A DNA stretch of 64,000 bases from Lytechinus pictus. Taxonomy: Eukaryota. The notes beneath the pieces are model-generated. The model was not told the DNA's origin. It searched no databases and saw only the letters and a list, made by a program, of their open reading frames with translations. A program made the translations under genes and the position numbers. Position 1 is the stretch's first letter. Every line of letters begins with the position of its first letter. Of the stretch, positions 6,879 through 61,368 are shown piece by piece. The stretch spans positions 25,732,001-25,796,000 of the forward strand of contig NC_087250.1 of assembly GCF_037042905.1 (NCBI RefSeq), written 5' to 3'.

Positions 6879-7184
6879 GATCGATTATTTATTTTAACGA
6901 CCGTTTCCATCCAGAAATATCCAAACACCGACTTAAAAAAAGTTAATTAAATGTATTGGATTTTTTAAATAAAACTAACATATGAAAAAAAAATTATAAA
7001 AAATTGCCCTGTAAGATATAGATGAATAAAGATTCATAGACTAACAATTTATTAACTAGAACATATTTTACAAATAAAAATTACTGATAAGCAATTGCCA
7101 TTTTGTTGATCTTAACAATGAAGATTTAATTTTAAATTTGATTTCCAACTTTTGGCAGACCAAAGATTTACATTTTCTTGGTCT
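6879..7184 (+). repeat. Tripartite module copy
   Basis: GATCGATT 6879; TTAACTAGAA ~7052; ACTTTTGG then AGACCAA..TTGGTCT 7157-7184. Confidence 0.65.
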
Positions 7185-7617
7185 AATATCTTACCTATGC
7201 CTGTAAACCTTTCAACTGATTCCCGCAGTATGTTTTCACCTACCCTGAAAGCGGAAAATTTCGAGATATTTCGACTTTAGGTTTGGGAACTAAAAAATCC
7301 AGAAAATCCTAATATTACAACTAACAGCAAATAACGTACTAACTGTCAATATCCATGTTCCATGTGTATTTACATATTTTTTTTTACCTCGATACGTACA
7401 TTTCCGCTCGTGCTCCGTGAAATTCTGGATTCAGTTTCGGGAAATTTGTTTTGGATCTACGGAAACACTGTGATATCGTAATGGGTGTTACCATGGTGAT
7501 AATAGCCATGAATTAAAGACAACACCATCATTCACTTCATATCTTTGATGTGAATAGAAATCACCCATGAACAAATTGCAATACAGTCAGTCAGCAGGCC
7601 TTTAAAAAAAATCTTAA

Positions 7618-8217
7618 AGCTAAAGTCCACTTCAGAATTTTTTTTTATTTGAATCAATAGAGAGAAATCAGACAAGCATATTTCTGAAAATTTCATCAAA
7701 ATCGGATGTGAAATAAGAAAGTTATGATATTCTAAAGTTTCGCTTATTTTTCACAAAATAGTTATAGGCACAATTTAGCCACAAGCAAATGAGGGAATCG
7801 ATGATGTCCCTCACTCACTATTTCTAATGTTTTTCTTTGTTTGAATTATACGATATTTCAATTTTTACAGATTTGACAATAAGGACCGACTTCGCTGAAC
7901 CATAACATGTTAAACAATGGTAATGCCACATGTTCAGGGACAAATAAAACTTTGTTTCACAGGACAATGATGAGAAAATTAGAATATGTCATATTTCAAA
8001 TCATATAATACAAAAGAAACAGTTAGTGAGTGATGTCATCAGTTCCCTCATTTGCATACTGACCGGATGTGCATATAACTATTTTGTAAATTTAATGAAA
8101 CTTCAAAATGTCATAACTTTCTTACTTTACATCCGATTGGGATGAAATTTTCAGTGTTATGCTTGATGAATTTTTCATTTTTATTTGATTCTACATTGTG
8201 TTGAGATGGACTTGTCC
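7618..8217. mobile_element. TTAA MITE, same family as 108-1085
   Basis: TTAA flanks 7614-7617 and 8218-8221; AAGTCCAC / TGGACTTGTCC termini; long inverted arms. Confidence 0.75.
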
Positions 8218-8231
8218 TTAAATTTATTTCG

Positions 8232-9160
8232 GTGATATTCGTGACTGTAGAAGTTTTCCATATCTAATGAGCTTTAATAAGGTAGGTGTTGACCAAACAA
8301 CACTCTTAATTCGGTCATTACTACTCTAAAACATAGATCAAATTTCATAATTTTGGTACCATTGTAAAAAGGTAGAACCATTCTGTCATTGAATTTATAG
8401 TTTAAAAAATGTGACGTAGGTGAAACTTTTGATCTAAAACATGCTACAAAATATTAATTTTCACTAGACAAAAGCTGTTATTTTTTACACTTTATTTCTG
8501 TTCGAGCAAATATGATTTATGAATCACGATAAAGCTGAATATCTAATCTTTAATTAAATATACTATTGGTTATAAGAAGAGGTGTTGAAAGACAGTCAGC
8601 ATCCACCTATTGGAGAGCCACGTATATTTCACAGCTTACAAGCAAGAATGCTGCGCTCTGATTGGTCAAAGAGAAAACACACAAACCCACATTCAAAAGG
8701 ATTCCACTCCAGGTCCTATCCAAGGTGACACTCGCCATCTGGTAATCTCTTTAATTTGCTCGGGCATGTTGTTGTGAAACATTATCCAGCCAATCAGAAC
8801 TCTTGATTTCATGCTATTCAGAAATAAAAAAAATACCGGGTTTATCGTCTCGTATCTTAACGTTAATTGTTGGATCCTTGACCCATTTCCAAGTGCAACA
8901 TATCAAGAGTGACATTGTGAGGAAGTCCAGAGAATGAGCTTTATGATAATATAATTTTTTTTTTTGGCTGCGGCAAATAAAAAGTTTCGTACAATTTGCA
9001 AGAGAAAACAGAGGGAAGAAAAATCCATTTTGAGACGTTTTTTAAAGCCTAAAATTAACTTGTTTATGAAATTTTTTCATTCAAAATAAATGACTATTAT
9101 AGGAAATAAGCATTTACTCTTTCCGATAATGCAAGAATTTTTTTATTTCACTTGAAGATA
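8232..9160. repeat. Unclassified dispersed repeat, second copy at ~21223-22110
   Basis: Colinear blocks GTGATATTC.TGACT, CTCTGATT.GTCAAAGAG, CCAGCCAATCAGAACTCT and ACATATCAAGAGTG shared by both copies. Confidence 0.65.
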
Positions 9161-9425
9161 AAGTCGTTCTTAAAGTCGCTCTTAACTTACGAACAGAGAT
9201 TAATAAAACTGCGCCTTGTTATGACTCTCAGAATGATGGTAACAATTAGAGATAAATCCCATCACCATTTTTGCAAATACAAATGTGTATAGACTATCGT
9301 GCAGCTGAGACTAAGTTTAGAACCAGCCGGTCCGTTGTCATGGCATCATGACGTCACACTTCGGTACTCTATGATATGACATGACACAACAACGCGAAGT
9401 TATTATAGACAGCAAATAAATATGT

Positions 9426-9736
9426 AATCGAATATATAGTAATCATACGCTTTTCAATTTCTTTTCAATTATATCCACACACCAAGTTTTGGTAAATACT
9501 TTCGATGCAATCGCAAAGCAATGTATCATTTTTTTAAATCCCTTAATTAGAAAAAAAATTATGAAACATTGCGCTAAAAAGTATTAAAAAAAATAATCTT
9601 TACAGGCCGACATTTCGTAAACTAGAATAAAATTTCAATTTTTTTTTTTTTTTTCAGCATCTCATTCAAGTCAATTCCTACAATAATTTGATAAAAAACA
9701 AATTTTGGCAGACCAGGAGATATGATCTCTTTGGTC
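9426..9736 (+). repeat. Tripartite module copy
   Basis: AATCGAAT 9426; TAAACTAGAA ~9618; AAATTTTGG then GACCAGGAGAT..ATCTCTTTGGTC 9711-9736. Confidence 0.65.
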
Positions 9737-9883
9737 CCTTGTATACCAAATACTACTAATCATTTCATGGCTGTAATATTAATACCATGTGAATTCAAAG
9801 TGGAGTATAAGTGGAAAATTGATATCCGGGAAACCTGAAAGTTGTCTAAATCACCCACACTGTTGCAACGTCACCAAACACAT

Positions 9884-10735: not shown

Positions 10736-11042
10736 AATCGATTACACTATTTGAAAAACTATTTCTATAGGGAACTACCCAGACACTAATTTATGGAAAG
10801 TTGGTTTAAATTTCTCCTTTTCTCAAATACCTTCATATTAAATGAAAATATTTTTATTGAAAATAAACATTGCCTTTCAAAATAGAATAAACGAAAAAGA
10901 ATGATTGCCCGATACGATTAAACTAGATTATATTTTACACATAAAATATATTCATGATCCTACCTCACACTAGCCGGGTACGCTATCGATTTTATTTTTA
11001 AACAATAAATTTTGGCAGACCAGAAATTGTATTTCTTTGGTC
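10736..11042 (+). repeat. Tripartite module copy
   Basis: AATCGATT 10736; TAAACTAGA ~10919; AAATTTTGG then GACCAGAAAT..ATTTCTTTGGTC 11018-11042. Confidence 0.7.
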
Positions 11043-11394
11043 CAACGTCTTTTCATATAACCTTTCATTTGGGTCCCGGAAAGGGGTCTTAATCTATACC
11101 CACACTGAATATAAATGTGTTCATTATTATACATATTTTCACTACTGCAAATAAATTCATATTTATAAGTCTATTCATTATTGTAATTATGTTCATTTTT
11201 ATACGCATATTTATTGTTGTACATATGTTCATTTTTATCATTTTCCGCATCCACCGGCTGCGCCACCCCTTTAACTGCAAACATAATGTGCTGTAGTTTT
11301 TGTTGCTGATATTGTTTATGGTTACTTATGGTAATATGACACTTACTTACTTATGGTAATATAACAAAACAAAATAAAGAGCCAATAATGATGT

Positions 11395-13258: not shown

Positions 13259-13558
13259 AATCGATTAAAATATATTTTAAAAAATCCGAACTGTTTTAAT
13301 TTGTTCACCCCCCACAAAAAAAATTATCAATATACTAAGCTACGAAATTTATTGATTCATCATTTCGTGTAAATTTTTCACCGAAAAGGGCAAAAATAAA
13401 TAATATTTTCCTTCAAAAAGTAATTCGATACAATTAACTTGTTAATTTAAATATTTTTAATGGTATTACCGCAAACCCTGTACAGCACTTAATTATCATA
13501 CTTTGCATTTCATTTGAAATGAAATTTTGAAAGACACCGACATACATATGTGGTGTCT
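13259..13558 (+). repeat. Tripartite module copy
   Basis: AATCGATT 13259; TTAACTTG ~13434; AAATTTTGA then AGACACC..GGTGTCT 13532-13558; paralogue of 39595-39894. Confidence 0.7.
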
Positions 13559-15083: not shown

Positions 15084-15388
15084 AATCGATTACTCGAAGA
15101 ATACTAAAAAATGTATAATTATTGCACTTCGCCTGTCTTGATTTTAGTTTTTACATCAACCAAAACCAGTATTTATTTTCTTATTTACCTAACATTTAAA
15201 ATAAAAAAATAGAAAAAAAAATTAACATAAAAATAATTTACAAAAACAATGGTAAAAAATACAAGGTTAACTTTTTAATTATTAATTTTTGGGGTAATAT
15301 AACCTTAATGGATGATATAAAAAGTAAGTTTAAGCATAAATTAAAAAAGTACTAATCTAGTTTGACACTAAAATTGTGTGAGGTGTCA
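15084..15388 (+). repeat. Tripartite module copy
   Basis: AATCGATT 15084; TTAACTTT ~15266; TGACAC..GTGTCA 15363-15388; upstream 14916-15038 matches 43962-44152. Confidence 0.65.
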
Positions 15389-17277
15389 CTGTCATGTACG
15401 AAGCTGATATATTTTGAAAAATAAGTCCCTAATTAACATACCCCAGTTACTTCAAAATACATGTTGAATGAGGTCTAAATTTAAAAGCTGCAAAATGAGC
15501 AGAAATGGTCATGAAGGGTCAATACAGAACATGATTATTTTGTCTGTGTCAATGGTAGTCTAGTGTAGTGATGGTTCTGTGACATGGTTTGAGTCGTGGT
15601 TTGAAATACCCATCCATGTTTGTTTGTTTGTTTGTTATGTGTTTGCTTGTGCAGAGGTGTGTTTCATTCCATGTTATTGTTGATGTTAAGGTGCATGAAA
15701 ATAATTAAAAGAAACCGCTGAGAAACTCACTCATCACCACTGAAAAAAGAACAGTGACTTTCAATATTGTGTCATTTTGCAACTTTTGAATTTTGACCTT
15801 GCCCCACATTTCAAGGCACTGCACCTCTATGTGAACGACAATCGTATCATGTAGGGTATCATTTTAAAGAGAATTAACTTTTCTATTCATTGATATTAAT
15901 TTCACATTTATATTTCCTAAAACCGAGGAAGGATTATCGATCAAAGTCAGATTTCCAAACTTTTTTAAGGAGTTTATATAGATGTTCACAGACATTCAAA
16001 AGTCTTACTTCTTTTTTTTACGATTTTATCAGTCTAACAAATTTTGCAATGCACCATTCTGTGACAAGAATGAGTGCCAGATGATTTACTTGAATATCAC
16101 AGTCTTCCTAAGTTCTCACAGAAGGTTGCGCTGGTTTGCTGCGTTAGAAATGATTAAAAGACATCCCTTTCCTACACTACTTCAATCCCTTTTTTTTTGG
16201 GGGGGGGGGGGATGGGCAGCTCCACCATGGATATCGAAACTTCAAACTCTTTTGTTCCCCATGTTCATGTTCACAAAGTAGATATATCGCAACAATATCA
16301 ACATTAAACATAAACAGGGCGCTTTAGCAGAAAATTAATGAAATGTTATAAATTGTGATGAATGAAACACTCGAGCATATCAGTTTCACCCCCAAGAACC
16401 CACCGTATGGTTTCAGCCCCCTCCCCCGACCACACCGTATGGCAACGTAGCAATAAAGTAGAATGGGAGAATCGATAATAGCACATTTAACACACAAATT
16501 TAGAAAGAAAGGAACTCTGAATCTAAATCAAATTCATTGATAGATTTAGCAAAAAAGGCATAGGAAGATACATTAGAAAAAAAAAAAACATTCATTTCCT
16601 ACAACACGCTCTACTTCATTTATTGATTTTTTGGGGGGAGGGAGGGGCGGGGGGCAGGGCAGCTCGACCATCGATAACGAACTTTGAAACTCTTCATGGT
16701 CGCAAAGGTTTTTAAAAAATTGTATCGTATTGAATATAAAAATGAAGCAAAAAAAGGTCATATTTAGTATTAAATAAATATTGTAAATCATTTTGATATG
16801 ACGGAGGAAGAAATATTTGACCATATTAATTAGTTTCGTTTACCTCATGAGACAGTGTTTCCAATATGAAGAAAATTACCCGATTTCCGGGTATTCTGGA
16901 TTATTTTCAGGTTATTCCAGGTAATCCAAAAATTACAATAAAAAACAATCAAAAGTTTCAACTTTTAATATTCATGTTATATAATCTCAAAGAACTGTTT
17001 ACCTCCATAAGTAGCTCAAAATTTTCCGCTCGCTCTCCGCGCTCGCATTTCGAATTATATTCCAATTTCTAAAGAGGGAGTCAACAAAAAAATGTTTAAA
17101 TTCCTTGTTAGGCTCGCGGTATTATTGCCTGATTCTTATTAAAAATCAAGCTTGAAAATTACAGGAAATGTCTATGAATTTGGGATGCAGTTTCTGGATT
17201 TTTTTTTTAGAAACACTGCCCTGAGAACCATTCTATAGACATATTAAAAAAGTAAAACGAATAAAACTGAATTAGAG

Positions 17278-18143: not shown

Positions 18144-18450
18144 ATTTGATCATAATTTTAGGTTTACCCAGAATATCACAAAATATTCAGTAGGAAAAAA
18201 ATATATATTTTTTATTTGAGATTTACGCAAAAAAATGTATTTTTATGTATTCTTCCAAAATATTTTTTTTATTATTTATTTTGCTTATGAAAAAATACTA
18301 TAAAGCAATAATATAATCATAACTTTGTAAATTATATCTTTAAATCTAATATGCAATATTTGTTTCCTGCATTATTTGATATGAAGTCTTTTGGTGATCT
18401 TTAAAAAAAAAATCAATGTTTGGCCAGCCTGAACATTCGTAAGTTTGGGC
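18144..18450 (+). repeat. Tripartite module copy with degenerate first box
   Basis: ATTTGATC 18144; TAACTTTGTAAATTATAT ~18320 (same as ~22960); TTTGG then GCCTGAAC..GTTTGGGC 18427-18450. Confidence 0.55.
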
Positions 18451-22768: not shown

Positions 22769-23084
22769 AATCGATTAAATTAAAGGTTAAGAGACATTCA
22801 TTACACATTATATATTTTTTGGAAACAAATAGGTTTGTTTTATTTCTAACATTATTTTTCAAATATTTATATATTTTCATGCTTTTAAATTAACTAAATT
22901 TTATTTTAGGCATGTATTGTTTCTTAAAAAAGTCTTTAAAACGGATTATTTGTATTCGTTAACTTTGTAAATTATATATTTTTATAAGGTATATTAATTT
23001 TCGGTACCACAATTCAGCGTATGGAAAGTGGTTTTTCAAACAAAAGTTAATTTTGACAAGCCCCATTTTATTTCAATTGGGGTT
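22769..23084 (+). repeat. Tripartite module copy
   Basis: AATCGATT 22769; TTAACTTTGTAAATTATAT ~22959; AATTTTGA then AGCCCCA..TGGGGTT 23059-23084. Confidence 0.7.
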
Positions 23085-23523: not shown

Positions 23524-24582
23524 TGGTATCTTTTTTCTTAATCTACACGCGGATTACCCTACCATTACAAAGGGCCCGTAACACATTTTCACGTGCAAAA
23601 TTTTGGGGTGGCTCCATCCCTTTTCATCCCCTCCAGACAATGGACAAAATAGGCGAACAATGAAATCACAGTGGACGGATGCTCGATGGATGTAGAGCGT
23701 ATGAAACAAGTAAATGGAAAGAGTAGGCATGCACAACTGATACATAACGTGTTCCAACGGATGGCAAGTTTTTTTTTTCGTTTTACATCCTCTTTGCATC
23801 CGTAAGTACAGTGGGACCAGTTGTGGTAACGATTTAAAATGAGTTAAAGCATAATCCAACAAAATGACCACCCAAGTGTTTATTATTTATGAACAAAAAT
23901 TATGTATCAAATGGTTCTGTGAAAAGCTTTGTAATTGCTGAGAAATAAGCGTTAAAAAGCATGGCATTCCATAAAATATTGGGATTTTTTCCCAGCAACA
24001 ATACCCGCAATGATGATTCACTGTCCGACGTGTGGTAATCTGTGTTAGCTATCATCAGTAAGCTTTCATTTCACTTTATGTAACTGTGCTGAGTCTAGAT
24101 CTAGGATAATAATTATGGAAACAATTAACATTGGTTTTACCGACTTTCTGATGAAGTCAGCGTTTACTTTAGCTGCTTCCTTTTACCCTATTTTCATATC
24201 AAGGCTTTGTTAATGTGTTTTTTTTTATAACTACACTCTAAAAAAAAACCGCTGTTTGTTATTTTAAACAATATTGGTATATTCTATTATGAACCGTCCA
24301 GGAGTTATTGAGACGTTTTAAACAAGTTTTTAAAACCTTATACAAAAGAGTTTCATTTTTATATTAAATTCATGTAATAACCTAAGAAAAGGGAAAGTGG
24401 GATGTAAACATCATCAGTCCACCTAATGAATATTCATGACGATGTGCATATAATTGTTTGCACAAAATATTAACAAACTTTAAAATTTAATGACTTCGTT
24501 ATTTGTGATCCGATTTTGATGAAACTTTCAGCCTATTGTTCTGTGAATTTTACTCTGTTTACGTTGTAACTGGGTAATATTT

Positions 24583-31396: not shown

Positions 31397-31500
31397 GTTG
31401 ACTCAATGATTATTTGTTGGGAAATGAAGAAAATTAACGTTCAACCTTGTAATAATACGTAATCATGAAACGCGCGCGAAAGGACTTCGATTACTCACAT

Positions 31501-32279: not shown

Positions 32280-32298
32280 ATGTGAGTAATCGAAGTCC

Positions 32299-38362: not shown

Positions 38363-38584
38363 GAGGAGAAAATCCCCCAAAATACGTCAGATGATACACC
38401 GAATGTTATATTGATATAATAAACCGGTCTTTACCTCAAATAATGGTTCCTGACGATAAAAGTCATATTATGAAAATTTCATGACTAGAACTCAAAAATG
38501 GCGCTCCTACTCCATTCCGCTGCGCATGCGTAGCAACAATGGATGAGACGCTGCAACGAAACTGTTGTACCAAACTGTTAATGC

Positions 38585-39594: not shown

Positions 39595-39894
39595 AATCGA
39601 TTATAAATGGCATAATTATGTAAATGATATTTATTTTAATTTGTCCATAAAAAAACAACTATGTGTATATTATTTAGCTAAATTTTTTCATGAATTTATG
39701 ATCTTTTTATATTTTGCACCATACAAGGCAAAAAAATAACATTTTACAAAAATGAAATATTTTGATTAGCATAACTTTCTAATTGGGGTACCTTAAATGT
39801 TATATATTAGATTCCTTTCCCTCAATTGATGCCATCCTATGACAAATTTATATTTAAGAAATTTTGACAGATACCATTTAATGTTAATGGTGTC
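39595..39894 (+). repeat. Tripartite module copy, followed by a 5'-truncated copy at ~39930-40158
   Basis: AATCGATT 39595; AAATTTTGA then GATACCATT..AATGGTGTC 39870-39894; next copy has CTAACCTGCC ~40030 and AAATTTTGTCAGGCAC ~40124. Confidence 0.65.
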
Positions 39895-42800
39895 ATCATG
39901 CGTAGTGTGCCAAGAACATAGAGATGTAACCTCTACCCATCTGCTTATGAATTTTTTTTTATCTGAATAAAAGAAGCGAAAAATCAACAACAAATAATTC
40001 GGACAATACGTTAATTAATAAATATAGAACTAACCTGCCAAAATATACATTTTAAAACTATAAAAATATTTACAATGCGGTTAATTGCAACATTGTAACA
40101 GACTCCCGCAAATTTAATAAGAAAAATTTTGTCAGGCACTTCGCTTTCTTTGTTGTCCCAAAAAAGTGCTATCCGTATTTCCAATTGTAAATAAACAATC
40201 CATAGGAAGTCACAATACAACATACATCTTCTTACCTTACAAAAAACTGATATTGTGTAAACATTGACAAGCAGGGGCGGATCCAGGATTATCCAATGGG
40301 GGGGGGGGGGTGTAAACTTTTAGGAGTAAAATTTTGAAAAGCCAACCACAACTTGAAGCTATTTCGTACCAGATAAAAATTGACAAGCAAAAAAAGGGGG
40401 ATTTTCAACCACAAATTAAGGAAGCGCAAAAAAAGTATTCAATTTCAAACGAGGGGCACACCTCTGTTTTATTGGCATTTTTACATTACTAATCTTTAAT
40501 GTTGCTTCTCAAATCGGGGGGGGGGGGGTGGGGGATACGTGCCCCCTGGATGCGCACCTGTTGACAAGAGTAATAACAATTACTATGTAAAGTAATAGGT
40601 GCTATCAACTGCATCATGATTCTTGTCAAAAAAGAATTAATATTATTCCAAGAACTCTTGAGTCGGAGAATCCTGATATTATATAAAGTATTCACGTTAT
40701 CATGGTTTAACTTGCGTCGTTGTTTTTGTGGAGTAGGGGAATATCATAGTCATGTGTTTTGTGTGTAGATTGATTGTGCCATTGTAGTTTAATCATGCAC
40801 TACCAGTGCTTTCTGTTCGCAAAATGAGTTCGAACATAATCCAATGCAATTCATACCAAAGTGCTTGTATGTATATAAAAAAAAAACATGTGTCAAATAA
40901 CTCTGGAAGATAATGCGTAATTGCTGAGAAAATAACAAAAATAAGCACGGAATTCCATCAATTGTATTTTTTGTGCCTTTTAATTGGAATCCTCTTGGGT
41001 TTTGATTTGAATGTAGGTCCAGAGTTCGGATGGTCCCTGACCAGTCGGTCGATCTGGTGTTATGTAGTATGTATTTAACTTCCTGTTATCCTTTCAGTCA
41101 TTCACCTTCACTTGTTTACAAACTCCCCAAATGTCATCTAAGAATCCTCAAACCCTCAATACCATTTAACTCCTAAACCTTGACCATTAAGACCAACCCC
41201 CAGTGACGTCAGCTAACTTCAAGGAACAAAACTATGACTCACACTTCCAGTCCCATTCACTTGCACAGAGCATCACCACACCCCTTATACCAAACAAAGT
41301 TTGATAGACAATTACCTTTAGACCAATCAGATCAAGTTTAGAAATTCATCCCACTTTAAATTGTTACACTCCCAAAACTAATGATATGAATAAGACTTCT
41401 TGATTATTAGAAAGAGAGAGAGAATACTAGACCCACACTCATCGATACAGACTGACTGACTCAAGACGTCCATTAAATATTAGTTTAACTTCACAATCTC
41501 AATCTGATACCTCGAAATAATTATATTCATCGTCTCCTGTTATATCTGAATCTTCATGTACTTCGAATTGAAAAAAAAAGCTGAACATTGAGTATTAAAT
41601 ACTTAGTGATTTTAACTGTATAACTTTCTCCAAAATTTCTTCATTACGCTTCCCTTCTAAATTATATAATTACCGATCCCAACACGTCACTGGTATGTTT
41701 GGAATTAAAGGATATTGCTATATAATATTACATTACAATGTTAAGTATGGTGATGTGCCTTCTTCTTCCGCTCTAGCTCTCTGTGTTCTTTATACCTCAA
41801 CATATCCTTACCTTTAGTGGCGTACCTGGCATATTTCGTCAGGGGGGGGGGGGGGGGCAAGCGACAAGGATGAGCAAGGGGGGGGGTAGTAGGGATGGAC
41901 GTATAGGCACCTTTTTTCGAGGCGGCTGGTGATCATTGCCCAAATATTAACTTCACAGTACTTAATTTTTAGAGCAAGCGAACATTTTAAAAAGTTATTA
42001 TTTAGCCTTTTTACATGATGTGAAACGTGCAGAAATTATACATTCGGTCCTTTAATTACCAATGCACGAGGATATTTGGGCACCTCGCATTCCTCGTTGC
42101 CCTGCATTTTGCAGCCCCCCCCCCATACACGTTTGGATGTGTAGGTATGGCAGTGGCATTAAAGGTGGATAAAGTTACCCAGGAGGTGCCCGATAAAACA
42201 GTTGCACTTTATTGTCGAAATTATTTTTTTTCTAATGAAGTGGTCATTGAAATATGTTTATTAAAATACTTCTTTTATTCCTCTTCGAAGGTGTTTACAT
42301 TATTTTCCCAATTCTGCTCATTTGGAGACGTTACAAAAGAGGTATTTGACATTGAAATTAGTTGTATTCATTTTTGATTTGCATTTGTTTTATTTCCATA
42401 TACACAGATAAAACAAAAATAAATGCATCCATTCACTCATAAAAATGAATATGAACGTACAAATTTGGAGAAAGATAGATAGGCGGACGAAGGATCGGGT
42501 ATATAGGATAATATATAGATATATAGATATATATATAGGATATTAGGATAAAAAGGGGGACGGTAATAACCAGAGGAATGTGTAAGCAGGGGTATAGCTC
42601 GGCCTTTTCCAGGGGGGGGGGGGGTGAGGCCCTTGATTCCCGACAGATATCAGTACCGATTACCGACGACCAGTATTTATTTATATCCAACCCAGGGGCA
42701 GATCCAGGATTTTCAAGGTGGACATTTTTGTTTACAAAATTTTGTTAACAAAAATTTGACAAGCCCCATCCCAAAAGTCTTCACTTTCACTTGCACGTGC

Positions 42801-43258: not shown

Positions 43259-43384
43259 ATTACCCTGATGAATTATTTACTTTGTTCTTAAATATTTTTA
43301 CCAATACATTAATTTGTGTATATTATATACGGCATTTCATCAAAACAAATTTTGCCTGGCACGAATATTATCAAATTAGTGTCA
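43259..43384 (+). repeat. Partial tripartite module (first box lost to an upstream repeat)
   Basis: TTACCCTGATGAA ~43260; AAATTTTGCC then TGGCAC..GTGTCA 43357-43384. Confidence 0.5.
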
Positions 43385-44188: not shown

Positions 44189-44482
44189 AATCGATTACAA
44201 ATCGAATTCTATTGCGGGTCTCTCTCTATTTTTTCCGGGGTGGGGGGTAAAATTAAAGAAACCTCTACTTGTCTGCCTATTTTTTATTTTCTTTAATGAA
44301 AAAAAAAAGAAAAGTGATAACTAAATAATTCGGGCAATACAATTATCAATAAATACAGAACTAACCTGCTAAAATATGCATTTGTTATTTATATATACTT
44401 TAACAACAGAATTTTTATTTGAATAAAAATTTTGAAAATTAACGCAAATTTTGACTGGCACCTAGCATTTTCTGTGGTGCCA
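44189..44482 (+). repeat. Tripartite module copy
   Basis: AATCGATT 44189; CTAACCTGCTAAA 44361; AAATTTTGAC then TGGCACC..GGTGCCA 44456-44482. Confidence 0.75.
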
Positions 44483-44964
44483 AGAAATGTAATTCGTATC
44501 CCCATTGTAAATAAACATATTATCGGAGACCGCATTACAACATCTATTTTCTAACCTCCCCACCAAAACAAATATATTGAGTAAACAATAATTACAATTA
44601 CCATCGAGCTATTATAGCCCTATGCAATTACTATGTACAGTGTAAATCAATAAGCGCTATTGACTGCATCATGATTCTTGACAAAAAATAATCGATATTA
44701 TTCCAAGAGATTGAGTCGGAAATTCTGATAAATGTTATATAAATTATTCACTTAATCATTATCCACTGGGCCACGACGCTCCACTTAATATGACGTCATA
44801 GCAGCCCGCGCTCTCATTGGATGATTTTCAACGACCAATTACTGGTCGGAATATCGGTAAAAACAATAACAAAACAAAAGAAAGTTGGTATTAAATTTCA
44901 GCTCAGATGAATGTCTCTAGCGAAACATTCACGTATCCGAGATTCGGGTCAGGCGATGTATGGC

Positions 44965-45275
44965 AACACTCAAACAACTCTTGGTGTCTTGCTAAGTTTT
45001 GATTTTGATTTCGAATTACAATAAAAACACTTGTTAAATGGTACAAAATATATGAATAAATAATATTTATTTTAGCAGGTTAATATTATAATTGCTTATC
45101 ATTTGTATTCTTTTCTCTTAAATTGATTTTTTTACTTAAAAAATAAACAAGGTTTTATAATATAAAGTAAATAGACAGATAGACACAGGGTTTTGCTGAT
45201 GTAGAAATAAAAACTTTTGAAAAGGAGGGAAGTACTACTTTTCTTATGATATCCTGCGTACATTATGATTTTCAT
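44965..45275 (-). repeat. Tripartite module copy with first box deleted
   Basis: TTAACCTGCTAAAA (minus) ~45070-45083; hairpin 44965-44988; paralogue of 53569-53871 lacking ATCGAT. Confidence 0.55.
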
Positions 45276-45888: not shown

Positions 45889-46196
45889 CATCGATTACAA
45901 TTGATAAATGACAGGAATAATACTCATTAATCAGAAAGAAAACAAGACTATTTTTCTGAATGATTTTTAAAAATAAATTTGCTTTAATATAATACAATAT
46001 TTTTTTGTACTTTCTTTAAAGCATTAGGGATTTTAACTGATTAATACTCAAATTAATATGGATAATTTATTGTTAACTATTTAAATTATATATTTTTGAA
46101 AATTTAAATAATTCATTTTGCAATAAGTAACTACTATATTAGTCTATCAATTCTAACATGTATTTTTGCAAGCCCCGACATGTTTGTTTGGGGCTT
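45889..46196 (+). repeat. Tripartite module copy
   Basis: CATCGATT 45889; TTAACTATTTAAATTATAT ~46073; ATTTTTGC then AAGCCCC..GGGGCTT 46170-46196. Confidence 0.7.
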
Positions 46197-46399
46197 CTAT
46201 TAGACACGTAATCCCTCTAACTCAGTGTTAAAGATAAATTCCAGTTCTGTTAACGATCTCAATTTTTTTTTTGTATTTCCCTCATGATCGAGGATTTATT
46301 GATGAAACAAAATTAAATTCAGCAATACAAAGTATACAAAATAATCAAGACAGTATCTTCTAGGGATCATCATGGCATATACAATATTACATCAGATGA

Positions 46400-49300: not shown

Positions 49301-50206
49301 ATTTTGTGTAAATTCACGGATTTTAATTTTCAACAGTTCCCATTTATCTATAACTGAGATTTGCATCTTCGCAATCCTGGAAATCAATTCAATTATTTGG
49401 TTTTGGTAATCTTTATCTTTTAAAATAGAAGTGTTCAACTTCCAGAAACCTGGACCTCTTTTCAATTCTTTAAATCTGATTTTCAACGAAATCGCATTAT
49501 GATCAGCACGTATCGCTGGCCTAATATCAGTTGACAGTGTTCTGTTATAAATATTAGAGTCAACCAGCCAGAAATCTAATCTCGAAGCTCTTTTAAGGTA
49601 AACATTACGCCAAGTAAATTGTTTGACGAGAGGATGTGTCAGTCTCCACACGTCACGTAATTTGTGTTTCACAATTATCTTTCGCAAATATGTAACTCTA
49701 CCATAGTAATTATTTTGGGTACCTATTATATCTTTTCTGGAATTCAGAACACAATTCCAGTCACCTCCAAAAATTATCTCGGTGTTTCGTGAGTTTTCAC
49801 CAAAGCAATGTTTTTTAATTTCATGAAAAGTTTCTTGAAAAAATCTTTCTCTGCATTTTCGTACTGTGGGTGCATATACATTCCCTAGCATTAAACTGAT
49901 ACCGTTTATCTTAACCTGCAGCAGAAGTAGTCTACCATCCTTTTCATATTTCTTCTGAACTTTTTCTAGAGTAACATTCTGTCGAAAAAATATTGCTACC
50001 CCACACGAGTGATTGCTTCCATGAGAAAAGAAACATGGACCACTTCATTCATTTCTAACAATATTTTCTATATCACAAGACCAAAATGTTTCCTGTACGA
50101 ATATAATGTCGGCGTTTTGGTGTCTAATCCAGCGGAATATTTGATTCCGTTTTTCTTTGTTTCTCAATCCACGTACATTTAGGCTCAGTAAATGACAACT
50201 CTCCAT
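46400..50206 (-). pseudogene. Tx1-like ORF2 (APE, RT, C-terminal zinc finger) with several frameshifts/stops
   Basis: Starts MESCHLLSLNVRGL..VQETF at 50206; NVYAP, GGDWN, SRLDFW, DHNAI, GPGFWKLN, WRPITL, DFTKAFD, GVRQGCPLS, QYADDT, CLHCKVEEDFTHAFFTC across 5+ ORF pieces; end approximate. Confidence 0.9.
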
Positions 50207-50262
50207 AGAAGTAGTAGATGATAGTTGTAGGATGCTATTTTGCCACTATACTACTTCTTTTT

Positions 50263-51483
50263 TTATCCTCTTTTACTAGATTTCTGTTTCCTTTTTACCA
50301 CTGTTGCTTTCTGTGGTACATATGCTTTGTTTGATTTGATAAGCTCCGGTGACTCTGGTGACAATTCGCTTTCGTTATCATCAGATTCTGCGGTTGAGAA
50401 TTCGTCGTCATGTGAAACGCTCGCATCATCTTCTACGTCACGGTCAGCTGGTTGTCTCCTCGAGCTCGTTGAGACGTATTGCGTAATCTTGGATTGCGAT
50501 CGTTGGTTTGGCGTCGTGTTGCTTGGTTGCTGCTTTTGTTGTGAAGCTACCTGAGAAGTAGTGGGTGTGTCGCACAGCTGATCACGAGTAATTGATAATG
50601 ATGGGTATTGGGTGATGTCAGAGGTCTCCTGCTGCATGCCCGACGGTTTCGGCTGGTGAAGTGTATGATGCTCCGAGGACAAGGAAGCCTGGTTGCGCTC
50701 AGTATCGACGAAGTGATCTATTGCTGCCTGGGTCCTGGGGGTGATATCCGCCGAGTTGCGCTGATCAAACTGCGAGGTGGGCGTGGTCGGGAGGTTGGAA
50801 TCAAGCTGGATGTGTCCGGGTTGTTTACATCGGATGCATAATACTGGGTTAGTACATCTTGAACGGTGGTGACCTTCGTTGAGACAATTCGAGCAGATCG
50901 TTTTCTTTGTAGTTGGGGGTATTTGTCCGGTATGAAAAACTCTACCTCTGAAGAGCCCGAAGGTCATGAAGCGGGGAAGGGGTTGGGGTGGTTGTTGGAT
51001 GTAGAGAACTCTATCACCTGTTAGGCAATGTGTCAGTTGTCCGTCTACGCGAAGTCGTTGATATGTAGTTTTTCCTACAACTTTACATTTCCTCTTTTCA
51101 AGCTCATCACATATCAGGGACTCGTGGGCGGAGAGGGGAATGTCCTTGACCACCAGGCGCAAACAGTCGTCCTTTCCTTCACCAAGAAAAGGGTTTGTAT
51201 CATAGACAGCAATGTTGACATGCCGTACATTCAATCCTTTTGTGATGAGATCTATGCGCGCTTTGTGAGAAGATAGATACAGTCGCCATAGACCTCCAAT
51301 TTTCTGGATTCCTCTGATTCCATTGCTTAACGTAGACCGAGCTATACATTTGAAAAGTTCTTCACTTGTCAATACTTTGTCATTTGTAGAAGGTATATCT
51401 TTATGTTTGATGAACACTGGTTTACCCCCGATAGTATCTACGGGAGGCTTGAATCCGGCTTTGTCTGCGTATGCAGTTGCCAT
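50263..51483 (-). CDS. Tx1-like ORF1 (gag-like, CCHC zinc knuckles)
   Basis: 406 aa; CSNCLNEGHHRSRC and degenerate CIRCKQPGHIQLDS; LTGDRVLY motif; directly upstream of ORF2. Confidence 0.85.
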   Translation of the reverse strand: MATAYADKAGFKPPVDTIGGKPVFIKHKDIPSTNDKVLTSEELFKCIARSTLSNGIRGIQKIGGLWRLYLSSHKARIDLITKGLNVRHVNIAVYDTNPFLGEGKDDCLRLVVKDIPLSAHESLICDELEKRKCKVVGKTTYQRLRVDGQLTHCLTGDRVLYIQQPPQPLPRFMTFGLFRGRVFHTGQIPPTTKKTICSNCLNEGHHRSRCTNPVLCIRCKQPGHIQLDSNLPTTPTSQFDQRNSADITPRTQAAIDHFVDTERNQASLSSEHHTLHQPKPSGMQQETSDITQYPSLSITRDQLCDTPTTSQVASQQKQQPSNTTPNQRSQSKITQYVSTSSRRQPADRDVEDDASVSHDDEFSTAESDDNESELSPESPELIKSNKAYVPQKATVVKRKQKSSKRG

Positions 51484-51761
51484 CTTAACAGCTAAACCTG
51501 GGCGTTGGTTACAAAGTCAAATCTAAAAAAATCCAGTCTCTTGTATACCATCAAGTCACAAAAATGGCAAAAGTACTAAATGTATGTATTTTCCTTTAAT
51601 CTCCTCTAAAAACAGATTCTCAAATATATTCCAAGTGTGAAAATTAGGGTTTAATCACTCTCCGCGAGAAAGGTCGTGACCATTTCCGTTGAAGGTAAAA
51701 AGCGCCCGACGTGTTTGTTTGGGGCTTCTATTAGACACGTAATCCCTCTAACTCAGTGCTA

Positions 51762-52150
51762 AAGATAAATTCCAGTTCTGGTAACGATCTCAAAATGACT
51801 TTTTACAAAATCTAATATAATTAACTAAGTGTCTGTTTGTATGAATAACAAATATGTGCCAAAGGATTCTGGAAGAAATTGTGTAATTGCTGTGGAATAA
51901 GCAAAATAAGCGCGGATTCGGTCACTTCCGTCGGGTCTTTATTCCAGCAATAATGATACACTGTCCCACGTGTGCCTATCTGTGTTGGCGGTCTTCAGTG
52001 TGATAGTTTTTAGCTAGATATTATGATTTCACAAAGTTTAGTTTATGTAACTGTACCAGATCTAGATCCTCGATGATATACTGTCAATAAGCCTGGTTTT
52101 ACAGACTTTCTCATGAAATCAGTGTTTACTGCAACTACTGGCATTTCTCT
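51762..52150 (+). mobile_element. TTAA MITE whose left end lies inside the Tx1 flanking duplication
   Basis: AGATAAATTCCAGT ... ACTGGCATTTCTCT-TTAA termini; absent from the paralogue at ~54490. Confidence 0.7.
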
Positions 52151-53568
52151 TTAAAAGTGGGCGGAGCGACTACGACCCTGTTAGCAACGCCTGTTAACAT
52201 CGTTTTGCACACTCGCCGTAATGTCTGCGATATTAAAATTCTAAGAACCAATGAAATCGTTACAATTTACTAAAGCTATGAATGTTTATTATTTACATTG
52301 ATTATCGGTGTACAAACTTATACCGAATTTACCAGCAAGTGTCGGTTATAATCAGTCATTTACGTAAGTGTTACAAAGTGCCAACATTTATGAAAATATA
52401 GCGTAAATTTTAAATGGCATTTCAAAATCCTTATTTTTCACTATCTTCATAGTTTTTAATTGTTTTTAAAACATCTTGTTACATTTACTAGAATTTTCCC
52501 GAACTGCGAAAGTTGGTAGAACATTTTCTCCCTTATTAATGAGGAAATGGCAGGCCTTCGAATTCAGGTTAATTTTTGTTATATTTCTAAACAAAAATCG
52601 TTAGATTCGAACTACTATACCAATTGTTCGCCCAAAGGAGGGTTATCATCTCATATTGTTGTGTAAATGATACATAAATTAGGAGTGTAGTTATCAATGT
52701 TGGACAACATTTTTCACGATGATTTTCGTAACGAAGAGAAAAATCAAGTTTATTCTTAGCACGCGAGCTGCAGGATGATAAATTTTAGCGCGCGCCGACT
52801 GAGCTGATCGCCCTGGCTGTCCGTTCAGATTATCCAGTCCAATACCGGTGTCGGGTGGTGTATTCCACGTACCTTTTCCCTGTGCGATGACCACTGTGCA
52901 ATTTCAGTGATTAATTTTGATACTCGATCTCTTTTTCGGTAATTATTATTTCTTTCCTGAATAACAAAACGTAAAAAAAAAATTTTTTAAAGGACGCAAG
53001 TTATTTTATATGATAATATTCTTTAGTGTGACCTTAAACCTTCGTTCAAAATCTTGTCCGTGACTCGTGAAATTTAATTTCGTATTAATGTAGCAATTCA
53101 AATGATAACAGCAGATTGGACGGTTATAAGGGGAAGCACCAACTGAACAACATGGCTCCAGCATTTCCTCGCCGCGGAGATATTCGACGCAAAGTGGAAT
53201 CGCATGAAAGATTACACTTTTTCCAAATCCTGTGGGTAGATTTACAAACCCATCCTTTCAGTGCATATTTAATTGCATCAACTTACAATTCCTGAAATCG
53301 GTCAATATACAGCATATTAGAAGCACATTCAATGCTCTTTGACATTTAGTCGTCTCTCTTCGCTAAGAATCCACGGGTCGCCATTTTCCTCCATTTCAAC
53401 ATGAGCTCTTGAATATTCAATATGACGTCATGACATGATTTTCAGGGACCAATTTTTGGTCGCAATATCGGTAGAAATAATATCAAAGCAAAAGATAGTT
53501 GGTAAGATTCAGTTCAGATGCCACTTCTAAAACTTTTTACGTTTCCGATAATGAGCTCAAATGAATAT

Positions 53569-53871
53569 GGCACCACTTCAATAAATATTGGTGCCTTGCT
53601 AATTTTTTATTAAGACTTTTAAATTTGTTCAAATATTACTAGGACTGAATAAAATCTTAGAATAAAAAGAAATAATATTATATTTACTTATCATTTGTAT
53701 TGCGTTCTCTTGAGTTGTTCTTCACTTAAAAACGATTCAAACGAGTTTAATTATTAAAAAAAAAATAGATAGAAAAATGAGTACAAGCTTTTGCTCATAA
53801 AGAAAGAAATAAAAATGTATAAAAAGGAAGGAAGACCTACTAATATATTATGTTTTCTTCCGTAATCGATT
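53569..53871 (-). repeat. Tripartite module copy
   Basis: AATCGATT 53864-53871; GGCACCA..TGGTGCC 53569-53595. Confidence 0.65.
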
Positions 53872-54157: not shown

Positions 54158-54459
54158 AATCGATTACAATTAACAATGACCGGAATCATACTCAAGAATG
54201 AGGAGGAAAACAAACTTATTTGTATGAATGATTTATAAATATGATTTTTTTAAATATATTTTATTTTGTTTGGATGTTGTAAATATTTAAATCAAAATAC
54301 ATTTTTAATGATTAATAATAAAATTTATATGGGATATTTGTTTTATAACTGTTTAACTTATATATACTTGAATATTTATTTTATCCATTTTCCAACATAG
54401 TTGTATATCAATTCTAACATGCATTTTTTGCTAGTCCTGACGTGTATGTTTTGGGGCTA
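54158..54459 (+). repeat. Tripartite module copy
   Basis: AATCGATT 54158; ATAACTG ~54345; ATTTTTTGC then TAGTCC..GGGCTA 54432-54459. Confidence 0.7.
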
Positions 54460-57669: not shown

Positions 57670-57967
57670 AATCGATTAAAACTAAAATTCGAGAAAAAAA
57701 AAAATAACCGGAATAATACACACCAATCCGGAGGAAAACAAACATATTAAAAAAAAAAATTAAGAATATACTTTTGTTCAAAATCTTTCATGTTGAATTC
57801 CTTTTTCAAAGCATAAGGGGTTTTATTTATTATATCTAAAACTAACTATGTAAATTATATATTTCTATATATATGCCATTTCCATTCCTTAATGACACAG
57901 CCGATTTTAATTATTACTATCAATAATATATATTTTGGCGAGCCCCCAACATGCTTAATTTGGGGGC
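57670..57967 (+). repeat. Tripartite module copy
   Basis: AATCGATT 57670; CTAACTATGTAAATTATAT ~57842; ATTTTGG then GCCCCCAA..TTGGGGGC 57942-57967. Confidence 0.7.
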
Positions 57968-58346: not shown

Positions 58347-58612
58347 AACACTACAATGACAATTGCAGTGCCAGATACAATTAAGATTAAAAATTCGAAA
58401 TAAACATACAAATCTTTGTGACGTTTAATAAATGACATGAAGAAAAAATAGTTCATTTAGCAGGTTAATGCTGCATTTTACTTATGATTGTATTGCAACA
58501 ACTATTCCTACGTTTTTTTTTTTTTTTTTTTTTTAAAGTACAGGTATTTGTTGGGGTGAAAAATAGAAATAAAAGCAGTGGAAAAGTAAATTGAATATCT
58601 GTAAAATCGATT
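58347..58612 (-). repeat. Tripartite module copy
   Basis: AATCGATT 58605-58612; TTAACCTGCTAAA (minus) 58456-58468; GGCACT..AGTGTT (minus) 58347-58372. Confidence 0.6.
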
Positions 58613-58677: not shown

Positions 58678-58962
58678 AATAATGTAATAATAATAATATA
58701 GGATTTGTAAAGCGAACGTATCCACCTTGCTAGGTGCTCAAGGAGCTCCTATATTACCCCGGCCAAGCTAGTCAACCGATTCTAGTGCGCACAACTTTTT
58801 GAGGAAAGACTTCCTGCCGGTACCCATGTACCTCACCTGGGTCGAGTGCAGCACAGTGTGGATAAATTTCTTGCTGAAGGAAAACACTCCATGGCTAGGA
58901 TTCGAACTCACGACCCTCTGTTTGAACGGCGAGAGTCAGAACCACTAGACAACGACGCCCCC
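58678..58962 (-). mobile_element. tRNA-derived SINE with conserved core and L2-like tail
   Basis: Minus-strand head GGGGCGTCGTTGTCTAGTGG (A box) .. GTTCGAATCC (B box); core TGCACTCGACCCAGGTG..GGGTACC; (ATT)n tail; partial copy at ~43440-43592. Confidence 0.8.
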
Positions 58963-59493
58963 ACCACTGTACTAAAGAATGTACATTTTTAACTCAACAC
59001 ATATTAATTAGCACTTGCCATTTGATATGCTACATTTTCATACAAAATTAATATTACCGCAGTCATCGGCAATAATGTGATCACGAGGTCACACTGGTGA
59101 TTTCCATTTTCTTTTTAATGTAAAGCTTAACCGAACAGAAAGCAGTGCTCGACTAAAGTAAAGTTGAATGATCAATCGATACGCAAAACGCATGCGTTGA
59201 ATAGTCACATTCTTCAATAAAGTATGTAACTTGTTCATGATATCGACATTTTTAGTGGCATAATTCTCGGCACAATAAGATTTTTAGTGATAATGATAAT
59301 ACTAATAATATGATCGATAGCGTTTAATACTTTAATTCTCTAAGCGATTTACCTTGCATTTATCAAACATATTAATGCACCCATATCGTTTTTAGAATAG
59401 TCATCCCCCTCAATATCGGAAGGTAAAATATTGTATTTACGTAACATCTGGAAAATAATATAACCCGCTTTCATTCAACGTTTTCTCAATTAT

Positions 59494-59774
59494 GGACACC
59501 AAATGTAGCAATATTGGAGTCCGCCAAAATTTAAAAACTTATTTATTTGTTAATTATAACTGCGTATAATTGTTCAAATGAATTAATATTAAAAATAAAT
59601 ACATAAAATAAACGGTTATTCTCTTGTTCATAGTTGGATAATAAAAGTTATTTTTTGTTGATTTTTAAAGATTTTTTTTCAAAGGCAAAGGAGCAGATAA
59701 TTACAGGGTTTTTTTCATACAAAAACAAATGAAATAAAAACATGAAGAAGTATTATTTCGTCTTATAATCGATT
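59494..59774 (-). repeat. Tripartite module copy
   Basis: AATCGATT 59767-59774; on minus AAATTTTGGC then GGACTCCAA..TTGGTGTCC 59494-59522. Confidence 0.65.
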
Positions 59775-60372
59775 GTTGTCTTAACTATTAACGCGTGTAC
59801 AAAGTGAACTTAAACATATATATTAATTACAATTTGTTTTTTATTAGTTACATTTTTATACAAAATTCATTCTAGTATTACAGTAGTCATGGTAAAGAAT
59901 TTGACTGAGTTTCAAAGGTCACAATGAAAAAAAAAAATATATGATAATTTTTTTTTTAGTTGAGCAAGACCAAACAGAAAGCATAAGTAGTGCTCGCTTA
60001 GAGTACAATGGTAAGATCAATCCATACACAAACACGTGACTTCAATAATTACAGCCTTCACAAAAATGACATAAATTGTTTTCTCTGACACAATTCTCGG
60101 AATGGTATGAACTTTTCGTGATAACAATAATAATAGTGTCAACTAATATACAAATGATGCATGGGTTAGAGTGGGTCAGTAGGAACTGCACACGGTAACT
60201 TTGGCATGGTTTAGACCATAATACCAAAGTTACCGCGTGCACACAGTTACACTGACCCAAGAAAGAAACACATGCATCATCCATTTAATAGAATGGAAAA
60301 AAATATTGAACAAACAACAAAGTTAAATACCTTTAAAGATGGCAACATGAATATTATTACACGCACATTCTA

Positions 60373-60886
60373 AGGCACATACATTCGTAATTCCGAAGCT
60401 TCGTTATTCCGAAGGTTCGGATATTACGAAGGTTCGTTATTCCGAAGGTTCGTATTTCCGAAGGTTCGTATTTCCGAAGGTTTGTAATTCCGAAGGTTCG
60501 TTAGTCCGAAAACGAAATGAGGTTCGTAATTCCGAAGGTTCTTTACTCCTAAAACGAAGTGAGGATCGTAATTCCGAAGGTTCGTTAATCTGAAAACGAA
60601 AATATTTATTCCGAAGGTTCGTTAGTCTGAAAACGAAATGATTAACAAACCTTATTTCGTTTTCGGACTAACGAACCTTCGGAACAACGAACCTTATTTC
60701 GTTTTCGGATTAACGAACCTTATTTCGTTTTCGGATTATCGAACCTTCGGAATAACGCCACAAATGTTCGGATTAACGAACCCTTTTACGTTTTCGGATT
60801 AACGAACATCGAGGTATAGGCAATTTACGTGTTTTGGAATTGCGAACCTTCGAAATACAGAACCTTCGGAAATACGAAGTGTAACC
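60373..60886. repeat. Foldback element built of ~16-17-bp ATTCCGAAGGTTCGT repeats
   Basis: Tandem units on plus ~60385-60640, reverse-complement units ~60645-60880; ATTCTA on both flanks. Confidence 0.8.
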
Positions 60887-61083
60887 ATTCTAGGTCTCTT
60901 TAATGTAACGAGAATTTGAGATGTGGTAGTATGGTGATTGAGTGACCGAGTCCATAACAGGCACTCTCGGATTTTTATCGTTAGTCATGTCTCATCGTTT
61001 TGGAAGTTAAACTAATGAATCTATGGTATCACTGAATACAATTACAACACGGCCCTAGGTTCGATTGTGTTATATACGTTACA

Positions 61084-61368
61084 GGCACCACGTAAATAAT
61101 ATTGGTGCCATACAAAATTTAAGTATGACAAAGCATACTTTGAGCTGAAATTGTCGAATTAGAATATGTATATACAATACAAAAATGCATAATTTAGAAA
61201 GTTACTTTTTGAACTTTGATCAACGGATGGTAGTTATTATTTTGCTGTCAATATTTTAAACTTTTTTTTTTAAACGGTAAATAACTAATAAATAAAGGTC
61301 GTCGTTGACCAAAAAAAAATGAAATCAAATCAAAGAAAAGTAATATTATTTCTTCCTCATAATCGATT
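61084..61368 (-). repeat. Tripartite module copy
   Basis: AATCGATT 61361-61368; TAACTTTCTAAATTAT (minus) ~61189-61204; AAATTTTGTAT then GGCACCA..TGGTGCC 61084-61109. Confidence 0.7.

Follow-up and report, generated by a model that had tools for sequence, protein, structure and literature searches.

To our knowledge, few Sm-class RNAs are described beyond the spliceosomal set, namely the nematode SmY RNAs, the spliced-leader (SL) RNAs, the U7 small nuclear RNA (snRNA), and some viral RNAs. In Sm snRNAs, the Sm site has the consensus RAU3-6GR and lies ahead of a 3' stem-loop. U7 genes have an snRNA-type promoter, and their RNA runs from a short, single-stranded 5' stretch through an Sm-type site to one hairpin at the end. 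Nematode SmY and SL genes are clustered and multi-copy, encode Sm-class RNAs of ∼70 to 100 nt with AAUUUUGG-type sites by stem-loops, and use SNAPc-type promoters, and the HSURs of Herpesvirus saimiri and the engineered U7 Sm-OPT antisense RNAs combine a constant Sm site and 3' hairpin with a variable, target-pairing 5' segment. Here, we describe a family of modules of similar design in a 64,000-nt stretch of the Lytechinus pictus genome (NC_087250.1, 25,732,001-25,796,000, forward strand; hereafter the window, whose positions serve as coordinates below). We see about an even chance that these modules are genes for Sm-class-like small RNAs, forming a local birth-and-death family in which the 5' segment is free to vary. 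An initial annotation of the window had placed an Sm-site-like AATTTTG followed by a hairpin at sites spanning 7148..61118; the sites are there, but the family runs past this span on both sides, from a hairpin at 4783 to a box at 61204, beyond which a decayed copy is found at 63490.

The modules share with U7 (RF00066) the order of elements named above and a predicted size of about 65-70 nt. However, their site is of the spliceosomal type (AAUUUUGR) and not the U7-specific type, and whereas U7 is one conserved guide, there are about 23 modules with unrelated 5' segments, loops of 7-16 nt, and no 3' box. With no RF00066 match in the window at E values up to 10 and no common sequence among the 5' segments, U7 was rejected as the identity of the modules. 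A genome search with the U7 model, which says little, returned nothing over the cut-off among the 65 of ∼190,000 candidates that were scored. In contrast to the SmY and SL genes, the modules have neither a conserved leader exon nor a splice donor ahead of the site, where the spacer holds just 0.16-0.18 bit per position, and the Rfam SL and SmY models found no match in the window. A spliced-leader RNA was rejected since the stretch between promoter and site is at background conservation, with no residual similarity even in close paralogs. The setting also differs from that of the nematode systems, as this is an 811-Mb genome in which U1 starts ATACTTACCTG and the snRNA genes lie in tandem arrays.

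The 21U-RNA (piRNA) units of Caenorhabditis elegans are many and tiny, lie in one region, and carry an snRNA-promoter-related motif followed by variable sequence (PMC6436959, PMC7884074). Those units number >15,000, give ∼28-nt precursors, and have no Sm-type site or hairpin, whereas the ∼23 units described here have a conserved 3' handle. HSURs and Sm-OPT RNAs (see PMC6763288 and PMC3390224) are viral and man-made, respectively; here, the one 5' segment searched had no target complementarity. Literature searches, at the level of abstracts, turned up no description of a clustered family like this one. Among the organism's own snRNAs, the 3' end of U4 is formed by AATTTTTCC and the hairpin AGATCTC/GAGATCT, and that of U5 by a U-rich site and a hairpin whose loop is ∼10 nt. 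These two ends are loosely module-like, and the U4 and U5 genes share their promoter box with the modules. The modules differ from them in that they lack the upstream snRNA domains (about 26 nt before the site versus 90-115 nt in U4/U5) and the 3' box, and the Rfam U4 and U5 models gave no match on the modules.

Detection and anatomy of the module

The motif AATTTTG alone occurs at chance level, with 50 matches in the window versus 49.8 ± 6.4 in shuffled sequence. Aligning the sites in the T-run-to-hairpin orientation revealed a second conserved block, TAAC(C/T)NN(C/T)TAAAtTAT (hereafter the box), ∼95 nt upstream. Twenty sites in the window carry this common module of ∼125 nt as diverged copies, with the decayed copy at 63490 as a further one, and at least three more copies lie nearby on the same contig, which brings the family to about 23 in all. 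Matches to a regular expression for the box were followed by a hairpin of ≥6 bp at +86 to +100 in 10 of 59 cases, compared to 544 of 18230 background positions (3.0%; binomial p = 9e-6). A scan with the box only, allowing ≤1 substitution, led to TTTTG and a hairpin at the fixed offset in copies outside its derivation (22960, 39772, 54346, and 58467).

A covariance model was then built from six seed copies using only the U-rich site and the hairpin. The seeds scored at E values of 1e-8 or lower, six non-seed copies in the window were recovered at E < 0.05 (1e-4 to 0.04), and four more were weaker. Five of the six non-seed copies have TAAC 94-103 nt upstream. A broader second model (R2) gained just two copies, at 9694 and 11001. 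The copies at 4783, 7157, 15363, 18427, 54432, and 58347 stay below E = 0.5 with the models and are counted as members by virtue of their box, spacing, and individual hairpins. At two additional sites, 17089 and 36369, a box-like motif is followed at the family spacing by TTTG and a hairpin of 7-9 bp; both were missed by the covariance models.

These results bear on a chance explanation, in which an AT-rich sequence of 64 kb would be expected to yield such hairpins, here selected by eye. The chance-level frequency of AATTTTG is in keeping with it, as are the 84 perfect hairpins with stems of ≥6 bp in the window and the two examples of the initial annotation that are not clear members. It is nonetheless refuted by the box-hairpin association at fixed distance, by the E values of both the seed and the non-seed copies, and by copies outside the window that contain all parts. 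The module is a genuine, non-random feature that Rfam does not contain. The ten perfect stems that had been listed are all present at the positions given, as are the four examples of G-U pairing (23059, 39870, 54432, and 43357). Their treatment as one family holds for eight of the ten perfect stems and all four G-U examples; site 17592, whose upstream box is only degenerate and wrongly spaced, is a doubtful member, and site 24583, which adjoins another repeat and has no box, is not a member.

The order of elements within the module is the box (TAAC(Y)..TAAAtTAT), a TATA-like stretch, an unconserved spacer, A(A)UUUUG(R)C, and a hairpin 0-5 nt further on. The TATA-like stretch lies ∼28-37 nt after the start of the box in most copies (judged by eye), and the hairpin starts 94-99 nt from the box in 13 of 18 copies (range 86-107). 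Mean information per position is 0.80 bit in the box and 0.74 bit over the U-rich site, taken as the ten positions up to and including its G, compared to the 0.16-0.18 bit of the spacer. The site itself reads A-A-(A/U)-U-U-U-U-G, followed by G/A and often C, and a purine follows the G in about 11 of 18 copies (read off the listings), so that a sequence of the RAU(3-6)GR type stands beside a stem-loop. The proposal that AATTTTG precedes the stem in most copies applies only to a looser form of the motif, because the exact heptamer accompanies just three of the ten perfect-stem examples (13532, 44456, and 61084). Among all 20 copies, the exact heptamer precedes the stem by 0-5 nt in 11, and a T-run plus G does so in 16; the site is degenerate in four copies (15363, 44962, 53569, and 58347). 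Stems are 6-9 bp, loops are 7-16 nt, and many loops open with R-A-Y-A-U (by eye). Downstream, an ACGT(A) motif recurs: nine of 19 copies have ACGT in the next 45 nt, versus 1.7 expected. Related copies share the motif in this count, which excludes copy 13532 on account of its adjoining repeat insertion.

The hairpin as a probable RNA structure and the promoter-like box

When 17 copies were aligned by fitting to the model, 83.6% of the pairing cells were complementary, compared to 73.0 ± 2.1 in shuffles (none of 500 as high as the real alignment) and 35-42% when the partners are slid. Six of the eight stem pairs vary on both sides (1 of 500 shuffles), as do 16 cells (0 of 500), and the covariation score is 0.350 versus 0.172 in shuffles (0 of 500). 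In an alignment of 15 copies, four of eight pairs and 12 cells vary on both sides. The outermost pair is formed in just 6 of 17 copies, and the stems at 57942 and 23059 stay paired by a slip in register, a case that counts by column overlook. Covariation thus runs in the direction predicted by the initial annotation, here judged against shuffle controls and not R-scape.

The strand bias points the same way. Of 22 copies folded on both strands, 17 are more stable as the RNA in the sense of the box than as its antisense, one is equally stable, and four are less stable (mean difference −1.8 kcal/mol; sign test p = 0.007). Because some of the criteria for membership favor G-U, the mismatches were recounted with hairpin-independent anchors and strand-symmetric scoring. 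Among 12 strong hairpins, nine G-U and one A-C mismatches were found (p = 0.02), which bears out the excess of G-U over A-C that had been anticipated; without 17089 and 36369, whose membership is unproven, the ratio is 7 to 1 (p about 0.07). Taken together, the covariation and the strand bias support the terminal 3' stem-loop as an RNA structure.

Rfam models were used to find the U1, U5, U4, and U6 genes of this genome, whose flanking sequences were then inspected. TAAC(T/C)(G/A).. is present at −58 to −60 in six U1 and four U5 genes, and the U4 gene L094 has TAAC at about −54 (hand count). In U6, the box is at −65 to −66 in two of three genes and, by hand count, at −65 in the third (the script picked −54); a TATA box follows at about −31, that is, ∼34 nt after the box, and the genes end in T5 to T9 or longer. 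A weight matrix was made from 13 of these promoters, independently of the modules, and applied to a 22-nt search window in each module. Fourteen of 20 modules scored above the 99th background percentile, where about four are expected. In addition, TTTATATATAC lies 28 nt after the box of the U1 gene L067, and the same string is at +27 in module 44362. As judged by sequence, the module box resembles the proximal sequence element of the organism's own snRNA genes.

Based on these comparisons, our current hypothesis is that SNAPc would bind the box and that RNA polymerase II would start ∼58-60 nt after the start of the box, as in the organism's own U1, U4, and U5 genes. Given the box-to-start geometry of those genes, the predicted start lies 35-40 nt before the hairpin, and the box would stand as a proximal sequence element ∼55-60 nt upstream of it. 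From this position, an RNA of ∼65-70 nt is predicted, consisting of ∼26 nt of copy-specific 5' sequence, the Sm-type site, and the 6-9 bp hairpin with its 7-16 nt loop.

The same elements could be read as a polymerase III unit of the U6 type, in which box and TATA would direct an RNA of ∼25-30 nt that ends at the T4-6 run and leaves the hairpin outside the transcript. A box followed by a TATA-like stretch is the layout of the organism's own U6 genes, no intact copy has fewer than four T at the site, the sole consistent T-run in the modules is the one before the hairpin, and no polymerase II 3' box is present. However, the TATA-like stretch lies at ∼+28, as in L067, and not at ∼+34, as in U6 with its box at about −65. 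Moreover, most modules have T4, whereas U6 genes end in the longer runs given above, and a covarying, strand-biased hairpin would be left unexplained. We consider such a unit very unlikely.

The U1, U5, and U4 genes (loci L064-L087 and L094) lie in long tandem arrays at C2:31.96-32.01 Mb, C13:21.63-21.68 Mb, and C14:25.10-25.12 Mb and share the box TAAC(T/C).. and a 3' box, AAAGAAAGA, which is located 10-15 nt downstream of the U1, U4, and U5 genes. The U1 genes are spaced about 1405 bp apart and the U5 genes about 1.36 kb, some as inverted pairs.

Local duplication and the copy-specific 5' segment

Genome-wide searches were carried out with IUPAC patterns and not with the covariance model. 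A pattern combining the site with a G.C.CC/GG.G.C stem gave 29 matches, compared to six for the reversed control. Six of the 29 are located on the window's own contig, C6, between 25.745 and 26.068 Mb; both free pairs are complementary in five of these six and, as read from the rows, in only three matches elsewhere. A 17-nt box pattern matched five times in the genome, four of them in the window region or at 26.068 Mb. Box, site, and hairpin are all present in the copies 1 kb past the window end and at 26.068 Mb, and for the region around 44456 the genome contains just two relatives, which lie on this contig as well. Paralog pairs align for >150 nt past the module on both sides without a shared boundary, which indicates that the copies arose by local segmental duplication, and their confinement to one region of one contig argues that they are not a dispersed transposon.

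Mobile-element identities were tried and rejected. A hairpin in the 3' tail of a long or short interspersed element (LINE or SINE) does not fit 46170, where the LINE ends in poly(A) at 46263 and the hairpin lies in the 94-bp duplication that flanks it. The hairpin at 13532 is not part of the adjacent high-copy repeat, which starts 10 nt after it and has no upstream hairpin in 29 other copies. A transposon terminal hairpin, such as a LINE/SINE tail or a Helitron end, was set aside since the copies are not dispersed and have no shared boundary at the hairpin, and since the neighboring repeats and the LINE have their ends elsewhere.

More broadly, the palindrome might act as double-stranded or cruciform DNA, for example as a protein-binding or recombination signal or as the end of a mobile element. 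Some transposons typically end in perfect inverted repeats by T-runs, the 94-bp LINE-flanking duplication has its left edge at the hairpin at 46170, and an unrelated repeat was inserted 10 nt past the hairpin at 13532. Against this, the family occupies one contig region only, the homology between paralogs continues past both sides of the module with no common boundary, and the repeat next to 13532 lacks the hairpin in 29 of 29 other copies. A G-U strand bias would also be unexpected for a DNA palindrome, and we regard a DNA-level element as distinctly unlikely. The proposal of the initial annotation that selection acts on an RNA structure is thus supported by the covariation, the strand bias, and the snRNA-like box, but is tempered by the missing 3' box and by AATTTTG alone occurring at chance.

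The segment between the promoter-like elements and the site behaves differently from its surroundings. A cassette of 34 positions, +48 to +81, comprising the 5' part of the predicted RNA and ∼10 nt before its predicted start, was compared with the other 366 aligned positions in five paralog pairs. The cassettes match at 18, 23, 20, 20, and 19 of 34 positions, and shuffled cassettes match at 17.4, 21.1, 18.1, 20.8, and 16.8. Identity over the remaining 366 positions is 81, 69, 75, 67, and 69%. One-sided Fisher tests of cassette against the rest gave p values of 3e-4, 0.48, 0.03, 0.23, and 0.08; two pairs support a difference and three are not significant. That the cassette has no trace of homology even beside flanks that are 81% identical may reflect diversification or replacement. 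A genome search for targets of one cassette (61112-61175) found its own locus only, by a method to which short or imperfect pairing is not detectable.

Because the cassette is without residual similarity between paralogs that are otherwise 67-81% identical, one may go further and regard the modules as natural Sm-class guide RNAs, in which a constant handle of Sm site and hairpin, expressed from an snRNA promoter, would carry a cassette of ∼26-35 nt that is swapped or diversified to address separate targets. Such RNAs would be a cellular counterpart of U7 or of the engineered U7 Sm-OPT antisense RNAs. We consider this extension doubtful and on balance quite improbable.

Several points weigh against a family of working small RNA genes. 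Five or six decayed copies are visible (40031, 44962, 53569, 58347, 63490, and the site of 15363), and no Rfam family matched any module at E values up to 10. Six of the 20 modules fall below the threshold of the promoter matrix, the box being short and AT-rich, and we infer the start site from promoter geometry alone. The 3' box was found in 0 of 19 modules at ≤1 mismatch and in 5 of 19 at ≤2 mismatches, versus 16% in the background (p = 0.17), and the T4 run within the site is a possible polymerase III stop. As for the hairpin, the covariation alignment was fitted to the structure, the copies are related, and the controls are not phylogenetic, and membership was set in part by criteria that tolerate G-U and not A-C, which inflates the test of fold stability by strand.

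The missing 3' box and the decayed copies leave room for the DNA-level reading above and for a cluster of pseudogenes. In the latter case, an ancestral small RNA gene, perhaps a shortened derivative of a spliceosomal snRNA, would have been duplicated locally and would survive mostly as pseudogenes, with one or a few working copies at most. The loss of the site or of stem pairing in several copies is what a relic would show, the surroundings are rich in LINEs and repeats, and the loosely module-like ends of U4 and U5 could mark its source. However, box, site, and stem pairing persist where spacers and flanks are without similarity, the differences in the stems are compensated and not decayed, and G-U exceeds A-C, which together argue for purifying selection on many copies and not on one. 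We regard a relic cluster as unlikely, although by no means far-fetched. In the birth-and-death family that we favor, local duplication and decay would drive evolution, and selection would preserve the box, the U-rich site, and the ability of the stem to pair, but not the segment in between.

Individual copies and their setting

The leftmost copy, 4783..4904 on the minus strand, has the box CAACTAGAAAAT at 4904, the site AAATTTTG, and a hairpin at 4783-4810 (GGCCC/GGGCT, one G-U). It is followed on the plus strand by 7053..7184, with the box TAACTAGAAC, CTTTTGG, and the hairpin AGACCAA/TTGGTCT at 7157-7184. The site AAATTTTGG occurs in the plus-strand copies 9619..9737, whose box is AAACTAGAAT and whose hairpin at 9710-9737 consists of GACCA/TGGTC plus an inner helix with an outer A-C, and 10920..11043, with the box AAACTAGATT and a hairpin at 11017-11043. 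The plus-strand copy 13435..13558 (box TAACTTGTTAATTT, site AAATTTTG, stem AGACACC/GGTGTCT) is the one next to the unrelated high-copy repeat, and 15268..15389, also on the plus strand, pairs a degenerate Sm-like site, AATCTAG, with the hairpin TGACAC(T)/(G)GTGTCA. A probable copy at 18320..18450 (plus strand) has the box TAACTTTGTAAATTAT, ATGTTTGG, and, 107 nt from the box, the hairpin GCCTGAAC/GTTTGGGC with two G-U pairs. The same box, TAACTTTGTAAATTAT, is present in 22960..23084 (plus strand), followed by AATTTTG and the hairpin AGCCCCA/TGGGGTT with a G-U pair.

In the middle of the window, all but one of the copies lie on the plus strand. Copy 39772..39894 has the box TAACTTTCTAATTG, AAATTTTG, and the hairpin GATACCAT/ATGGTGTC with a U-G pair, and 40031..40159 is a decayed paralog of 44362 in which the box and AAATTTTG are intact and the stem has three mismatches. 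Copy 43260..43384 has a weakened box, TTACCCTG, with AAATTTTG and the hairpin TGGCAC/GTGTCA (G-U). In 44362..44482, the box TAACCTGCTAAAATAT is followed by the TATA-like TTTATATATAC at +27, AAATTTTG, and TGGCACC/GGTGCCA. The exception in strand is the decayed copy 44962..45082 (minus), where the box is intact, the site is lost (AACTTAG), and the stem has one A-C and one C-U mismatch. Copy 46074..46196 consists of the box TAACTATTTAAATTAT, TATTTTTG, and AAGCCCC/GGGGCTT, and its sequence from 46170 to 46262 is repeated at 51700-51793 beyond a LINE.

Further to the right, 53569..53699 (minus strand) has no TAAC box, a perfect hairpin (GGCACCA/TGGTGCC), and the degenerate Sm-like site AAATTAG. The plus-strand copy 54346..54459, a paralog of 46074, has the box TAACTGTTTAACTTAT, CATTTTTTG, and TAGTCC/GGGCTA with a U-G pair, and 57843..57967, also on the plus strand, has the box TAACTATGTAAATTAT, TATTTTGG, and the hairpin GCCCCCAA/TTGGGGGC. 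The remaining copies are on the minus strand. In 58347..58467, a weak Sm-like site, TTAATTG, accompanies the hairpin GGCACTGCA/TGTAGTGTT with three G-U pairs, and in 59494..59618, the box TAACCGTTTATTTT and the site AAATTTTGG accompany the hairpin GGACTCCA/TGGTGTCC with one U-U mismatch. Copy 61084..61204 (box TAACTTTCTAAATTAT, AAATTTTG, GGCACCA/TGGTGCC) has its close paralog 1 kb beyond the window end, and the decayed copy 63365..63490 retains the box TAACCTGCTAAAGTAT without a clear Sm-like site or hairpin.

The window has a G+C content of 33% and is located 2.7 Mb from the end of its contig in the 811-Mb assembly. A tRNA scan of the window found none, no Rfam family reached its gathering score there, and a Pfam-type search of its 76 open frames returned nothing beyond domains of LINEs, C2H2 fingers, and a weak match to each of two DUFs, with no host gene recognized among them. 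The region is rich in old local duplications, LINEs, and repeats, and open frames mark two LINEs. The first, a minus-strand element with poly(A) and with RVT_1 and zf-RVT frames, occupies 46263-51699 and is bracketed by a direct duplication of 94 bp (46170-46262 and 51700-51793, 95.7% identity), which is unusually long for a target-site-like duplication and whose left edge coincides with the 5' arm of the module hairpin at 46170. The second LINE, at 25784-28748 on the minus strand, has Exo_endo_phos (endonuclease) and reverse-transcriptase frames.

Other repeats are interspersed with the modules. A large inverted duplication at 29250-34530 contains paired open frames of ∼220 aa without a Pfam match and paired C2H2-finger frames, and a block of TACGGAT-type tandem and inverted repeats lies at its center (31500-32280). 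Members of a local repeat family, 85% identical, are found at 38574-38966 and, inverted, at 51765-52158, as well as at 23817-24168; this family adjoins the LINE insertion site. The dispersed high-copy repeat that runs from 13568 on has the consensus start ...CAAAGATA/CTACAAGGGGAAGATCGGACAC and 271 candidates in the genome, 40 of which were scored at 81-89% identity.

If the modules are transcribed, they would constitute a lineage-specific, multi-copy class of Sm-type small RNAs, and their variable 5' ends would invite the idea of programmable targeting. If they are not, the locus is still unusual, in that a hairpin has been upheld by compensating changes over about 20 paralogs. The cluster may also serve as a natural experiment on the reuse of snRNA-type promoters and Sm handles.

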